64,000 nt of DNA. Origin: an uncultured Alphaproteobacteria bacterium (GTDB lineage: Bacteria; Pseudomonadota; Alphaproteobacteria; Rhizobiales; Beijerinckiaceae). Shown here in pieces: positions 14,877-60,753 of the stretch. The notes beneath the pieces are model-generated. The model searched no databases, was not told where the DNA came from, and worked only from the letters and a program-made list of their open reading frames with translations. The position numbers and the translations under genes are program-made. The stretch is from the NCBI GenBank assembly GCA_963761435.1, contig CAVXHJ010000010.1:929951-993950 (forward strand), read 5' to 3'. Numbering within the stretch: the stretch's first letter is position 1; each line of letters begins with the position of its first letter.

Positions 14877-16440
14877 ACGCGGCCGTTCCCGCTCCGCCGC
14901 TCTACGAGACCATCTCGCCAACGCTGCGATGGCTCTTGACCGTCTGCATCATGATGGCGACAATCATGCAGGCGCTCGACACGACCATCGCCAACGTCGC
15001 CCTGCCCTATATGCAGGGTTCGCTCTCGACGACCCAGGACCAGATCAACTGGGTCCTGACCTCCTACATCGTCGCCGCGGCGATCATGACCTCGCCGCTC
15101 GGGTGGATGGCGGCCCGCTTCGGGCGCAAGCGGCTGTTCATCGTCTGCACCGCCGGCTTCACCGTCGCCTCTATGCTGTGCGGGGTTGCGCTCACGATCG
15201 AGCAGATGGTCGCCTACCGGCTCTTGCAGGGCGTGTTCGGCGCGGCGCTGGTGCCCCTCTCCCAAGCGGTGATGCTCGACATTTTTCCCCGGCGCGGCGC
15301 GGCTCGGCGATGGCGATCTGGGGCATGGGAGTGATGCTCGGGCCGATCATGGGTCCGACGCTGGGGGGCTTTCTCACCGACTCCTATTCCTGGCGCTGGG
15401 TATTCTTCGTCAACCTTCCATTCGGAATTCTCACCACCGCGGGCTTATGGCTCTTCATGAGCGAAACCCCGACCCGCCGGGACGTGCCCTTTTCCTGGTT
15501 CGGTTTCCTGAGCCTCTCGCTTGGCATCGGATCCTTGCAGATGATGCTCGATCGCGGCGAACAGCTCGGCTGGTTCGATTCGCCCGAGATCATCCTCGAG
15601 ACGATCCTCGCTTGCGTCGGCTTCTACTTCTTTCTCGCCGACTGCTTCACCTCCAGCCGGCCGTTCATCACCGTTCGCATTTTCCGCGACTGGAATTTCT
15701 CCATCGCCCTCGTCTTCATGTTCCTGATCGGCATCATCCTGCTCGCGACCATGGCCCTGGTGACGCCGTTCATCCAGAACATGCTTGGCTACCCGGTGCT
15801 GTCGAGCGGCTATCTGCTTGGCACACGGGGCATCGGCACATTCGTGGCGATGTTCCTGGTCGGGCGCCTCAGCGGCAAGGTCGATGCGCGCCTGCTCATC
15901 TTCATCGGCCTCGTGTTGGCGACCTCGTCGCTCTGGCTGATGGTCGGCTGGTCGCTTGACGTCCCGGCGAGCGTCATCGCCATCAATTCGGTCGCGCAGG
16001 GGTTCGGCCTCGGCTTCATCTTCGTGCCGCTCAACACCATCGCCTTCGCCAGCCTGCCGGGCGAACTGCGCACCGAGGGCGCCGCTCTGTGGACGCTGAT
16101 CCGCAACATCGGATCGGCGGTCGGCATCTCGATCGTCATCGCCCGGCTGACGAGCTCGATCACCATATTCCACAGCCAGCTCGTCGAGCACGTGACGCCG
16201 TTCAACGACGCGATGCGAATGCCCAACGCCTCGATGCTCTCGGGACACGGCTTGCCGAGTCTGGCGATGCTCGAAGGCATCGTCACCCAGCAGGCGGCGG
16301 CGATGGCCTATTCGAACGATTTCCTGTTCATGACCTTCATTTCGCTCTGCGCCTTCCCGCTGCTCGCTCTCATCCGCTCGCCGAAGTCGGTGGCCGCGGC
16401 CGCGTCTCGTGAAGCCGCGGCCCATGCGGTGATGGACTAG
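14873..16440 (+). CDS. emrB: EmrB/QacA DHA2 MFS efflux permease (frameshift near 15288)
   Basis: MQALDTTIANVALP, WVLTSYIVA, WRWVFFVNLP, LDRGEQLGWF; break at the homopolymer ATTTTTCCCCGG. Confidence 0.92.
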
Positions 16441-16626
16441 AGCCTGTTGCGTTCGGGCGGAGCCAGACTCGTCATTTGCGAGCGTGAGCGAAGCAATCCA
16501 TGAGAATGTCGGGCCTTGCGTTCCCCTGGATTGCCTCGTCGCCATAGCCCGTCGGAGACGGGCGTTCGGAAGAACGCCTATCGCTCCTCGCGACTGACGA
16601 TTCCAGGCCGGCGCAAGCTGCTCCAG
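16437..16626. repeat. MITE-like element B enclosing a GTCATTGCGAG-type REP doublet
   Basis: GTCATTTGCGAGCGTGAGCGAAGCAATCCA..TGGATTGCCTCGTCGC..CTCCTCGCGACTGAC palindrome; left end TGTTGCGTTCGGGCGGAGCCAGACT recurs inverted at ~38650-38690; degenerate ends CTAGAGCCTGTTGCG / CGCAAGCTGCTCCAG. Confidence 0.65.
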
Positions 16627-16678
16627 GCCGTCGATCCGGTCGATGACGCCAATGGCGCCGGTCAGACCCAAGCCTGGA

Positions 16679-16891
16679 GGAAGCCCAGCAAAGACTCCGG
16701 GAAGCCCAGCAAAGGAAACCGGAAGCGGGGCAAAGGAATCCGGAAAGGTATCAAAGGAAAACCCTTCCGCGGATTGGGCCTTTTCAATGGGTTACGACGA
16801 TCCGGGGCAAAAACCCGCTTCTCCGCGCCGCTCCTCGAGGCGGCGCGTTCGGCGACAGGACCACTCTATCCGTGGTTTCTGATAATCGCAA
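16679..16891 (-). repeat. Dispersed cassette copy 1: sigma70-like promoter, hairpin, conserved core, four 21-nt repeats
   Basis: Minus strand TTGCGA (16886-91) N17 TAGAGT (16863-68); core GGATTGGGCCTTTTCAATGGGTTACG 16771-96; GGAA-starting 21-mers at 16679, 16700, 16721, 16742. Confidence 0.75.
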
Positions 16892-16901
16892 GAAAAAGTC
16901 G

Positions 16902-17192
16902 CGCTCTTATGGCGTTATCTGTTGGTCGACCGGTTTGCTGTTCGTTCGTCGAACCCTTGCCGTCATGGCCGGGCTTGTCCGGCCATCCACGCCGGGCCGC
17001 CGCAAGAACGAGTCCCGCCTCGGCGCGACGGCAGGAAGGCGGACGGTCGCAAGGCTTTTCGCGCTTGCCTGCGTAGATGCGCTGGGCCTTCGGGATGGCC
17101 GGGACAAGCCCGGCCATGACGCCTTGATGGCGCCGTCCGCCACCTCCGCCATGCTCCCGATTCCTTCCCCACAACAGCCAACGATAAGAGCG
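16902..17192. mobile_element. MITE A copy 1
   Basis: Terminal inverted repeats GCTCTTAT..ATAAGAGC (imperfect to ~23 bp); internal REP-like doublet GTCATGGCCGGGCTTGTCC.. / ..GGACAAGCCCGGCCATGAC; no transposase. Confidence 0.85.
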
Positions 17193-17195
17193 GCT

Positions 17196-17491
17196 GGCTC
17201 TTATGGCGTTATGTGTTGGTCGACCGGTTTGCTGTTCGTTCGTCGAACCCTTGCCGTCATGGCCGGGCTTGTCCCGGCCATCCACGCCGGGCCGCCGCAA
17301 GAACGAGTCCCGCCTCGGCGCGACCGGCAGGAAGGCGGACGGTCGCAAGGCTTTTCGCGCTTGCCTGCGTAGATGCGCTGGGCCTTCGGGGATGGCCGGG
17401 ACAAGCCCGGCCATGACGCCTTGATGGCGCCGTCCGCCACCTCCGCCATGCTCCCAATTCCTTGCCCACAACAGCCAACGCGATAAGAGCG
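17196..17491. mobile_element. MITE A copy 2 (tandem with copy 1)
   Basis: Near-identical direct repeat of copy 1, separated by 3 nt. Confidence 0.85.
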
Positions 17492-17547
17492 AAAGCCGGC
17501 GCCAGTTGCTCTCGTCGCGCCCAACCCAGATTGAAGCCGCTCCCCGG

Positions 17548-18189
17548 CTAGAGGGCGATCGCGATCGCTTCGCGGCCTTTGGGTGTCTCGACAACGCGCA
17601 TCGAAACCGGTTGGCCTTCAAAGAGGCTCGAGACTCCTGCAGCGCCAAGAATCGAGCTGTGGAGGAAGACGTCCTTGCCAAAGTCGTCGCTGGCGACGAA
17701 GCCGAAGCCGCGAGCCCCATCAAACCATTTGACCTTGCCGGTCATATTCACTGCGGTCGACGCGTCGGGAGGCGGTCGTCGCGGTGGCCGCTCCGGCCGT
17801 TCCACAACGCTCGCGGTGTCGACCTCGATAACCCGGACCACCTGCGCGCCTCGGGACCCGGAGCGGACGACAGCGCGAATCTTGGCGCCGGAAGGCAGCG
17901 TCTCGCGTCCGATCTGTCGTAAGGTCTTAAGATGCACGAAAGCATCGCCTCCGCCGCCCGTCAGCTCGACGAAGCCATAGCTCTTCTCGGCGTTGAACCA
18001 TTTCACAATCGCCTCGACCGTCAACCCGCTGGCCAACGGATCGTCGCTCGCCGCAGAAGCGCCGAAAGCCGTGGTTGTGTCCTCTCGGTCTCGCGCCAAG
18101 CCACGCGATTCTGACGGCTCCGGGGCCTCCACAAGGCGCTCGTCCTCTTCGAACGCGAACCTGACGGGGGCTCCGCAACTGATGCACAT
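17548..18189 (-). CDS. Cold-shock protein with two CSD domains
   Basis: VKWFNAEKSYGFV..DAFVH and VKWFDGARGFGFV..DVFLH; start ATG 18189, or ATG 18196 with a frameshift. Confidence 0.88.
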   Translation of the reverse strand: MCISCGAPVRFAFEEDERLVEAPEPSESRGLARDREDTTTAFGASAASDDPLASGLTVEAIVKWFNAEKSYGFVELTGGGGDAFVHLKTLRQIGRETLPSGAKIRAVVRSGSRGAQVVRVIEVDTASVVERPERPPRRPPPDASTAVNMTGKVKWFDGARGFGFVASDDFGKDVFLHSSILGAAGVSSLFEGQPVSMRVVETPKGREAIAIAL

Positions 18190-38396: not shown

Positions 38397-38432
38397 GGGC
38401 GCCGGCGCCGGCCGCAGGCCGCCAAATCTCGC

Positions 38433-38728
38433 GGAAGCCGAGCAAAGACTTCGGGAAGCCGAGCCAAGACAAAAGGAAGCAGAGCAAAATCCGCCGGAAA
38501 GGTATCCAAACTTTTCTCTTCCGCGAATCGAGCCTTTTCAACGGGTTGCGGCGAATCCAGATCGAAAAACCGGGCTTGCCTCAGGCCAGGCTTCTCAGCC
38601 GCGTCTCGCCTGCCATTTCTCCCGGCGCCTGAGCGCCGGGCGGCAGGGTTCGCAATGACCAGTCTGGCTCCGCCCAAACGCAACATGCATTAATCAGAAA
38701 GTCTACCCTGATTTTCTCTTTTTCGCAA
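38433..38728 (-). repeat. Dispersed cassette copy 2
   Basis: 21-mers at 38433, 38454, 38475, 38496; core GAATCGAGCCTTTTCAACGGGTTGCG 38525-50; minus-strand TTGCGA (38723-28) N17 TAGACT (38700-05); contains an element-B end at ~38650-38690. Confidence 0.75.
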
Positions 38729-38738
38729 GCAATTTCGC

Positions 38739-39028
38739 GGCTCTTATGGCGTTATCTGTTGGTCGACCGGTTTGCCTGTTCGAACCCTTGCCGTCATGGC
38801 CGGGCTTGTCCCGGCCATCCACGCCGGGCCGCCGCAAGAACGAGTCCCGCCTCGGCGCGACCGGCAGGAAGGCGGACGGTCGCAAGGCTTTTCGCGCTTG
38901 CCTGCGTCGATGCGCTGGGTCTTCGTGGATGGCCGGGACAAGCCCGGCCATGACGCCTTGATGGCGCCGTCCGCCACCTCCGCCGTGCTCCCAATTCCTT
39001 CCCCACAACAGCCAACGCGATAAGAGCG
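38739..39028. mobile_element. MITE A copy 3 with 8-bp target-site duplication
   Basis: Near-identical to copies 1 and 2; flanked by the direct repeat AATTTCGC (38731-38 and 39029-36). Confidence 0.88.
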
Positions 39029-39135
39029 AATTTCGCGAAAAGCACTTTGGCCGGGCGCGTCGCAGCTTCAACCCAAAGCCGACCAACGGAGCGCTTCACG
39101 CAAGGTCGGCTTGGCCAAGAAGGACCGAGCCCAAT

Positions 39136-40585
39136 TTATACAGAGCCAGGAAGCGGGTATCGCTTCTCCGCAAGTCGCGGCAAAAGTTCAATCAGACCGC
39201 CAATATCGCCGGAAGTCAGAAACAGCACGGCATCGTCCTTGCGCAGCTCAGCGCCGATTTTGGCGAGGCCCTCCTCGCAGGAACGTATCGGCGTAGCGTC
39301 CACGCCGGCGCCATGCACTCGCTCCATGATCTCGCCGAGACTTGCCTGCTCATGCGTGCCGGCGCCCTGGTTCGCCGGCTCGAATATGAAAACGCGATCG
39401 CAGCCGCTAAACACGTCATCATACCATTCGAGCTTGTTGCGATTGCGCCACGAGAACGTGTGCGGCTCGAACACGACAAGCAGGCGCCGCTCCGCAAAAT
39501 GCTTTCTCATCGCCGCAATTGCGCTCTTGGCTTTGTCATAGGATGATCCAAAGCCTTCGAACATTTGCACGCTGGTGCGATCTGATTTTCGGTCGAGCCG
39601 GCGCATGACGCCGCGAAAGCTCGCCATCGCCGCTGCGTATTGCTCGACGCTGGCAAGGCCGCGGGTCAGCACGAACGCCCCGATCCCAACCATATTTTCG
39701 ATATTATGCGCGCCGAGCTGGGTGGTCTTCACTCGGGCGATCTCGCGGCCTCGCTCAGTCAACGTGAATTGGGAGACTGCGTCCATACTCGATATTTTCC
39801 GCCCGCCAGTCGCCCCTTGTGAGCCCGAAGGTCACGACATCGCGTTTCGCTTCGGTGAGAAATCGCTCGCTGAGTTCGCCAGAGGTCGCCGCAACGATGA
39901 GCCCGTCGCGCGGGACCAGATCAAAGAGCTGATGGAAGGGCGCGAGATAGGACTCGATCGTTGGAAAGACGTTGACGTGGTCATGCGCGAGCGGCGCCAG
40001 CAACACATGCGCGGGATGATAGTGCAGAAATTTCGACCGGTTGTCGGTATTGGAGGACGGATATTCGTCGCCCTCGAGCAAGAACAGCCGTCCCGCGCCG
40101 GCATTGGATGCCCGGGCAGGAGACAAAGGCACGGCGCCGATCATCCACGAGGGATCGAGCCCCGCGCTCGCGAGGCAATGCGCCATCATCGAAACGCTCG
40201 TCGTCTTGCCGAAAGATCCCGCCACCACAATGTTCTCGTGTCCACGCGAAAGAAGCGCGAGCACTTCGGCGAAGGACAGAATTTTCGGCCCGCCGGGTCT
40301 TGCGGCGCGGGCGAAAGCCTCGGCCACCTCGTCATTCTCGCTCGGAACCAAGCGCGCGTTCTTGCCGATGACGATGAGATCGGCGCCGTCAGGAATATTC
40401 TCTGCCGCGTAAGGCGTTCGGCAGACGAATTCCTCACGAGCCAGCACCTGCGAGATCGGCGGATAGATGGCTTCGTCGGAGCCTGTTACGGCAACGCCGC
40501 TGTCGCGCAGCAGGATGGCGGTGGCGCTCATGCCGACGCCGGCGAGGCCGATGAAGTGCGCTGCGCGAAATGGAAATGCGGCCAT
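39136..40585 (-). CDS. Mur ligase, Mpl/MurC-like (frameshift near 39783)
   Basis: HFIGLAGVGMS, GSDEAIYPP, AGSFGKTT, EGDEY, SKFLHY, DH, G.HN, FRGVMRR, FEPHTFS. Confidence 0.85.
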
Positions 40586-40783
40586 TGTCGCCTTGTCTCG
40601 AAGCTCGCGGATCATGCGCCGCTTGAGTTCGTCGAATCAGAGCGGCGCAGGGCCGCGAACATCTGCGTTATGCCGGCGACCCCGGCAACAGGGAATGCGC
40701 TGCCCCTCGCCTCCCCCGGACCCAGGGGCCGTTGGCGGCGTCCGCCCCTCGCGCATTTGGCGGAGCTCCGCGCCTGACGAGGA

Positions 40784-60415: not shown

Positions 60416-60565
60416 CCAGCCGGACTCCCTGCTCCAGCAATCAGGATAGCCGCTTGGCCCGGGCGGGTCGAGGGGCGGCCGAGTTCCGCATCAGGAAAGC
60501 TGGGGCGGCGGCCCAGGAAAACTGGCGAAAATCCACGAAAACGAAATTGCTGTTTTTTGCTTTTT

Positions 60566-60694
60566 GGAATTGAGGCTTTTCAGAGTGTTACGGACAATTC
60601 AAATGCTTTCTTTGCTCCTCGTTTCTCTGCCTAGCACGCGGCTTCGCTAGTCGGCGAAAGAGAACCTTATAGCGTATATTTCTGCTTTTCGCAA
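60566..60694 (-). repeat. Dispersed cassette copy 3 (divergent, no MITE)
   Basis: Minus-strand TTGCGA (60689-94) N17 TATAAG (60666-71); CTAGC..GCTAG hairpin; core GGAATTGAGGCTTTTCAGAGTGTTACG. Confidence 0.6.
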
Positions 60695-60753
60695 GTCATA
60701 TCCACGACGCGTTTCCTCATGTCGTTTTGCCGCAACGCCAGCCCGCAGAGCGG

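Follow-up and report, generated by a model that had tools for sequence, protein, structure and literature searches.

MITE A, a short transposable element in the genome of an uncultured alphaproteobacterium (G000, our source genome), and its autonomous partner from the IS1595 family both insert at one fixed offset from a 15-bp quasi-palindrome. It is this palindrome, rather than a promoter, that fixes the landing spot. Target selection by this clade of IS1595 elements and its MITEs is real, strong, and conserved, and it follows the clade of the transposase. We see about an even chance that this is palindrome-anchored targeting in which the transposase itself reads the palindrome.

Insertions in the window

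The window is the whole 64,000-nt stretch of DNA that we analyzed. A sequence-only reading of it had placed MITE A exactly 10 nt from the -35 box of a repeated cassette at two loci, and both gaps are exact: TCGCAA ends at 16891 and MITE A begins at 16902 (locus 1), and TCGCAA ends at 38728 and MITE A begins at 38739 (locus 2). Each gap consists of 2 nt plus an 8-nt target site duplication (TSD). As that reading had it, the TSD is clean at locus 2 (AATTTCGC at 38731-38738 and 39029-39036) and degenerate at locus 1, where the bounding sequences are AAAAGTCG and AAAGCCGG, and a third cassette is empty (head at 60696, minus strand). At locus 1, two MITE units lie head to tail as a dimer (16902-17192 and 17196-17491). 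The features are:

16640-16901, minus strand: cassette 1, a member of the c1 subfamily (left limit approximate), whose tail has 10/21-nt periodic repeats
16780-16794, minus strand: conserved core of cassette 1
16863-16868, minus strand: -10-like hexamer of cassette 1 (TAGAGT), 17 nt from the -35 hexamer, in a predicted promoter
16877-16891, minus strand: 15-bp quasi-palindrome of cassette 1 (TTGCG-ATTAT-CAGAA), at offsets 10-24 from the element end
16886-16891: -35 hexamer of cassette 1, overlapped by the quasi-palindrome
16894-16901, plus strand: TSD of locus 1 on the head side, AAAAGTCG
16902-17192, plus strand: MITE A copy 1, the first unit of the dimer, with its left end facing the head
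17193-17195: 3-nt spacer between the MITE units of locus 1 (most other junctions are 8 nt)
17196-17491, plus strand: MITE A copy 2, the second unit of the dimer
17492-17499: partner of the locus 1 TSD, which represents the second c1 allele and is shorter by one A
38400-38738: cassette 2
38534-38548, minus strand: conserved core of cassette 2
38700-38705, minus strand: -10-like hexamer of cassette 2 (TAGACT)
38714-38728, minus strand: quasi-palindrome of cassette 2 (TTGCG-AAAAA-GAGAA), which overlaps the -35 hexamer at 38723-38728
38731-38738, plus strand: TSD of locus 2, AATTTCGC, with an identical partner at 39029-39036
38739-39028, plus strand: single copy of MITE A at locus 2, 290 bp
60460-60704: cassette 3
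60576-60590: core of cassette 3
60666-60671: -10-like hexamer of cassette 3
60680-60694, minus strand: palindrome in the head of the empty cassette 3 (TTGCG-AAAAG-CAGAA)
60697-60704: empty slot of cassette 3

We take the conserved core of the cassettes to be similar to an IHF site. Cassettes 1 and 2 each lie between convergent genes: cassette 1 has an MFS transporter gene and a cold-shock-domain gene as neighbors, and cassette 2 has an amidotransferase gene and a Mur ligase gene. The Mur ligase gene (39136-40615) is apparently split into two overlapping frames, for the middle and C-terminal domains, perhaps by a frameshift in the assembly. A short repeat with 86% complementary arms adjoins cassette 1 (16435-16476) and is found inside cassette 2 (38654-38695). 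MITE A itself contains two inverted 45-nt arms of a palindromic repeat (17255-17418 and 38792-38955), presumably REP-like, and this repeat is very abundant in soil metagenome contigs.

MITE A and its IS1595 partner

MITE A is 296 bp long, non-coding, and present in about 80 copies in the source genome (82 left ends and 76 right ends). The sequence-only reading expected an autonomous IS with the same ends and listed IS1595 among the candidate families, and there is such an element: a 1091-bp IS1595-family IS with five copies, of which one is interrupted and one is frameshifted. It has 23-bp terminal inverted repeats (TIRs) and an 8-bp TSD in common with MITE A. Searching the genome with its transposase (tblastn) matched only these five copies. 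The 341-aa transposase scores 146.9 bits against NF033547 (cut-off 75) and 29.1 bits against PF12762 (DDE_Tnp_IS1595; cut-off 27), and its N-terminal zinc finger scores 43.9 bits against NF050000 (cut-off 28). ISL3, our first guess from the ends, was rejected (19 bits versus a cut-off of 180), and in the profile search no model of an IS256, ISKra4, or ISLre2 transposase matched, only the generic zinc domain IS256_N_4Cys. Given the shared ends, TSD, and target, MITE A is likely mobilized in trans by this transposase. At the 51 loci with both outer ends, the two copies of the TSD agree at 8/8 positions in 27 cases and at 7/8 in 15. One IS1595 copy (L002, C11:152286-153177) is interrupted by an element of about 0.9 kb that looks IS5-like by eye.

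The predicted structure of the transposase (pLDDT 88) has a helical hairpin, a zinc finger, a helix-turn-helix (HTH), and an RNase H core, and its best structural matches are retroviral integrases and DDE transposases. No additional target-binding domain is present in this model. We considered an extra N-terminal targeting domain, but the hairpin is also found in non-targeting proteins. The HTH sequence VHPTT and the loop HPG accompany targeting in the few elements compared, which is a lead only, as VHPTT is also found in 21 of 150 distant representatives whose insertion sites we have not seen.

MITE A often forms arrays. All 22 MITE-MITE junctions are head-to-tail; of 28 junction spacers, 26 are foreign and just 2 equal the local TSD; and a common array spacer, CGAATTTT, changes orientation together with the MITE. 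These observations led us to reject serial re-insertion as the origin of the arrays; because the spacers are foreign and the junctions head-to-tail, the multimers probably transpose as whole units or form from circles. The head-to-tail arrangement could also reflect the loss of inverted dimers. Two pairs of MITE loci have swapped flanks (C11:92276-92569 with C17:65222-65518, and C17:325912-326208 with C26:135889-136185), which suggests MITE-mediated rearrangement or misassembly.

The target repeat

The cassette is a genus-restricted non-coding repeat of 250-300 bp with about 110 copies in the source genome. It consists of a promoter/operator-like head, a variable middle of 90-150 nt, the conserved core, and a tail with 10/21-nt phasing. 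A scan for the core, which is independent of the heads, found 107 copies with a score of at least 30. A head lies within 320 nt of 87 of these cores, versus 0.33% of random windows, and 48 of the 107 carry an element.

As proposed from the sequence alone, the head resembles a sigma-70-type promoter. TTG at offset 9 pairs with TA at 32 (11 versus 3 heads) and TTG at offset 10 pairs with TA at 33 (14 versus 1), so the two covary at a 17-bp spacing (Fisher p = 1e-4; 29 of 56 non-redundant heads were informative). The heads are thus predicted promoters, and we infer that they are active. The cassette is not a small-protein gene, as there was no preference for a reading frame among 56 cassettes. 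In Rfam, there was no credible match for 16300-17700 of the window or at 7 loci. Across the 56 cassettes, the folding signal was weak, with z scores of -1.0 for the sense strand versus -0.8 for the antisense strand. Cassettes often lie between convergent genes (47/83, versus 199/1129 long gaps, using rough gene calls).

A strict version of the core pattern occurs 58 times in G000, 66 times in a relative (G071), and 2-9 times in four other members of the genus; among 150 other genomes from the order, 3 have a single copy each. Genomes without a TIR match (G047, G050, and G017) also contain many heads, and five heads in G050 have the same layout as those in the source genome. A second IS (L004, G000:C1 from about 343010 onward), which has the start of a zinc-finger transposase and a GGCGATTAT end and which we take to be ISNwi1-like, begins directly behind the core of a cassette; other elements, too, may therefore use cassettes as landing pads.

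A fixed offset across the genome

At 48 of the 65 element loci in the source genome, the head motif lies at exactly offset 10 (47 loci above the list cut-off of 12, plus C10:837514, whose head score is 11.9). At 11 more, a head or core lies within 450-600 nt but not at this offset; at 4, a contig end interrupts the locus; and 2, both with mismatched flanks, have no cassette nearby. Positions within 600 nt of a core make up only 2.7% of the genome. A random position reaches a head-matrix score of 10 with P = 5.7e-5 per side, for a matrix trained on the same sites; leave-one-out scores were 15-33 for 23 of 24 sites. Elements that are one base off a head do not occur, and the distance is equal throughout, except for one element behind a 14-bp duplication.

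The element loci have 22 distinct TSDs. The idea of independent insertions at a set position is supported by 22 unique cassettes, each with its own TSD at one exact offset. The same orientation seen at the two loci in the window does not hold genome-wide: the MITE end nearest the head is the left end in 21 cases and the right end in 22, and for the IS the left end in 2 and the right end in 1.

The sequence-only reading had also raised the possibility that cassette and MITE were duplicated together. This fails for the 22 unique sites and holds for the 24 exact-offset loci in the near-identical c1 subfamily, to which locus 1 belongs. This subfamily comprises 32 cassettes with ragged ends and both MITE orientations, and a MITE was parsed at the head in 25 of them. 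Because they are near-identical and ragged-ended with two MITE orientations, the c1 loci may represent as few as two events. At locus 1, the imperfect duplication corresponds to the two slot alleles of the subfamily, and near-identical cassettes such as this one were in part copied together with their MITE. The ragged ends adjoin REP-like palindromes. Among the matches listed for four public runs per locus, there were no alleles without the MITE.

The palindrome, not the promoter, sets the position

Our data do not support positioning of the insertions by the -35 box. Across 24 non-redundant sites in the source genome, the -35 box starts at offset 9 in 11 sites and at offset 10 in 11 (2 sites were mis-called in this test). 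The half-site TCAGAA is at offset 19 in all 24. Nor do they support the claim that target sequence does not matter: the insertion point tracks the 15-bp palindrome even at sites that lack promoter geometry.

In relatives, we found 115 distinct elements with a pair of TIRs, kept 91 whose TSD matched at 7-8 of 8 positions, and dropped the other 24. A matrix trained on the source genome peaks at offset 10 in 53 close elements, whose transposases are 61-95% identical (z = 8.3-8.5; these elements are kin and hence not independent, and 26 of the 53 are from one genome). It also peaks at offset 10 in 10 elements from G009 (z = 6.2-6.6) and in 2 from G069. In sister elements from G048 (n = 10, with the same TIR) and G066 (n = 15, leaving out of the scoring one more element of another type), the motif is absent (z = -0.6 to 0.3). 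The pattern extends to further MITEs that share these ends (G062, G068, and G006): 9 of the 13 with a TIR pair match at least 4 of 6 palindrome positions at the expected offset. In the far flank of the insertion sites, the signal is absent.

The G009 sites have the consensus T-N-C-N-G-N5-C-N-G-N-A. Using the six-position pattern TNCNG-N5-CNGNA, which was derived from the G009 sites themselves, 21 sites from close relatives that lack the cassette core match at 4.0 of 6 positions at offset 10, versus about 2 elsewhere (z = 7.3). Just 3 of these 21 sites, and 0 of 10 sites in G009, have a -10 TA. Where G009 and G069 sites do have a canonical -35 box, it is at offset 15-16. One G009 site is in coding DNA and matches the palindrome at 6/6 positions.

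A model built from 29 non-cassette sites of other genomes also predicts the targets in the source genome: its top 200 among 9.6 million positions include 92 cassette heads (46 of them filled), versus 2 for a control model from G048 and G066. Elements can insert at the mirror position, inside the head on the -10 side (C11:3269 in G000 and L131 in G009), but in G000 there are 48 upstream insertions versus 1 mirror insertion. A model from 23 non-cassette sites scores the upstream slot above the mirror slot in 49 of 56 heads, so the apparent upstream rule reflects the preferred sequence of the upstream slot. RNA polymerase may add to the frequency of insertion at heads, without setting the base.

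We considered that the target might be a look-alike of the IS end, but the G048 elements share these ends and lack the motif, so we rejected this. Beyond the genus, a homologue at E <= 1e-60 was present in 3 of 400 genomes at the level of the order; of the 7 loci there, the 4 with a clean TSD lack the motif. Two different IS1595 elements from two genomes (L060 and L129) lie beside GAAC-N7-GAAC, which is presumably the alphaproteobacterial SOS box and which the palindrome overlaps. Also, TTCNG-N5-CNGAA is somewhat depleted in coding DNA of the source genome (51, versus 71-78 for spacings in the matching frame), perhaps because the target site is avoided there.

What reads the palindrome

We propose that the transposase of the 1091-bp IS, which would also mobilize MITE A (they share their ends and the 8-bp duplication), reads the quasi-palindrome TNCNG-N5-CNGNA with its AT-rich center directly. 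The 8-bp slot to be duplicated would start 2 bases beyond either edge of the palindrome, and a T-rich slot would decide the side. In the source genome, the best sites would be the heads of the ~110-copy repeat. Because the palindrome overlaps the -35 box of the predicted sigma-70 promoter there, most insertions would land just upstream of the promoter and spare it. Most insertions do leave the predicted promoter intact, as the sequence-only reading suggested, and their fitness cost is probably low; a safe harbor is plausible as a consequence of the insertion position.

In favor of direct read-out, the trait follows the clade of the transposase and not the ends or the host genus, and targeting extends to weak, GC-rich, and coding sites. 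Against it, none of the 108 positions in the model's top 200 that are not heads is filled. These comprise 58 positions in or just upstream of genes, 25 that are cassette-related, and 25 that are plain intergenic, and the last have an equal median score. Since equally scoring positions are empty, cassette context or selection must add something. The one-sidedness of the palindrome is easier to square with a separate dimer than with a symmetric transpososome. Even 32 empty heads retain the palindrome, and it is abundant in G047, G050, and G017, with no TIR match, so something besides the 1091-bp IS maintains it. Finally, the trait maps to one clade, or a single evolutionary change.

A fuller version of direct read-out is that a Roseiarcus IS1595 clade gained the reading of a 15-bp operator-like palindrome, and insertion at a fixed 10 bp from it, through minor changes to its 341-aa transposase, needing neither an accessory gene nor a guide RNA. 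It would parasitize a genus-restricted, promoter-driven non-coding family of about 100 members whose own regulator defines the site. We think this version possible but less likely than not. If it is true, site selectivity would be new to the IS1595/Merlin superfamily, and the element would be a very compact targeted integrase.

Alternatively, a host dimeric DNA-binding protein (a regulator of the cassette promoter or a nucleoid protein) on the palindrome might tether or position the transposase, a mechanism proposed for XerCD sites and IS1202-type elements, with the palindrome still the anchor. We view this as possible but somewhat doubtful. It is also one form that the earlier idea of a protein bound to the promoter could take. 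The dyad symmetry and one-sidedness of the palindrome and its conservation in empty heads and IS-free genomes fit a host dimer, as does the predicted transposase model with no extra domain. So does occupancy: 49 of 97 heads are filled, while 31 lone high-scoring sites and the 25 plain intergenic ones, like all 108 of the non-head positions, are not. However, outside cassettes the N5 palindrome is no more frequent than other spacings, so a wider host regulon is not evident; G009 has few cassettes and uses weak, GC-rich, and coding sites; and no candidate protein was identified. Of the regulator motifs compared by eye (IclR/PcaR, LysR T-N11-A, RcnR, LexA, and FNR), none fits all sites.

The first proposal, in which sigma-70 RNA polymerase sits on the promoter and directs the transposase to a point upstream of the -35 box, has a precedent in TnGBS, ISLre2, and ISKra4 (PMC3942029), and both the promoter-like heads and the excess of upstream insertions would fit. 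We consider it improbable: insertion is independent of the promoter register, promoter-less sites retain the offset, the -35 boxes in G009 and G069 are displaced, and the sidedness is accounted for by the slot sequence.

That there is no targeting, with cassette and MITE copied together and the survivors sieved by selection in harmless AT-rich gaps, is very improbable: the c1 subfamily and the location between convergent genes would fit, but distinct TSDs refute it at the 22 unique cassettes, single-base precision is beyond the reach of selection, the G048 and G066 elements are also mostly intergenic yet lack the motif, and other MITEs with the same ends show the offset in three genomes.

Insertion next to promoters is usually ascribed to contact with the transcription machinery, and here this pattern resolves into a palindrome that merely overlaps the promoter, so similar claims call for caution. 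The case can be tested directly, since sister transposases that do and do not target (G000 and G009 versus G048) share their ends. If read-out is direct, then this is a small one-gene integrase with a preference for about 25 bp. The work also exposes an abundant, uncharacterized repeat family in a common soil genus.

Comparison with known systems

IS1595-family elements have a zinc finger, a DDE_Tnp_IS1595 domain, and an 8-bp TSD (PMC8101967), and all three are present here. The family is over-represented between co-directional genes (PMC9208149). For ISApl4, also of this family, the available text reports only A/T-rich 8-bp repeats and no flanking motif (PMC12561309), which resembles our G048 and G066 elements. 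ISApl4 forms a circle joined by an 8-bp repeat (PMC12561309), and such a circle would fit the foreign 8-bp spacers in our MITE multimers. In the openly accessible literature that we searched, we found no target motif for IS1595, and an earlier description elsewhere is possible.

REP-targeting ISs belong to the IS3, IS4, IS5, IS110, and IS256 families, and IS1595 is absent from the main text of that paper (PMC1525189). As here, they are highly selective for a dispersed non-coding repeat that is often between convergent genes. They insert inside the dyad, whereas our elements insert beside it and target the promoter-like head of a repeat of 250-300 bp.

The ISAba32 subgroup of IS1202 abuts XerCD (xrs/dif) sites (bioRxiv 10.1101/2022.12.17.520857). 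The likeness is a fixed distance outside a protein-binding site, in a single subclade with sequence signatures in the transposase. That subgroup has a 5-bp direct repeat, a fixed orientation of IRL, and a known site, while we see an 8-bp TSD and both orientations. In a by-eye comparison with the dif consensus, no second arm is conserved across the TSD slot.

Our elements belong neither to that subgroup nor to the TnGBS ICEs, ISLre2 (p-MULT 3), and ISKra4 (p-MULT 4), which have a similar pattern. The latter are bacterial DDE elements whose insertions lie upstream of housekeeping -35 boxes at a set distance; those with near-perfect inverted repeats insert both ways, and a low-cost strategy was proposed (PMC3942029). 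Our elements are similar in their fixed distance upstream of the -35 box and in using both orientations. They differ in the transposase (Mutator-like in those elements, IS1595 here) and in the distance to the -35 box (13-17 bp, versus 9-10 here). The anchor also differs: it is described as the sigma-A promoter in those systems, while here it is a 15-bp palindrome that can be used from either side and for which the promoter is dispensable.
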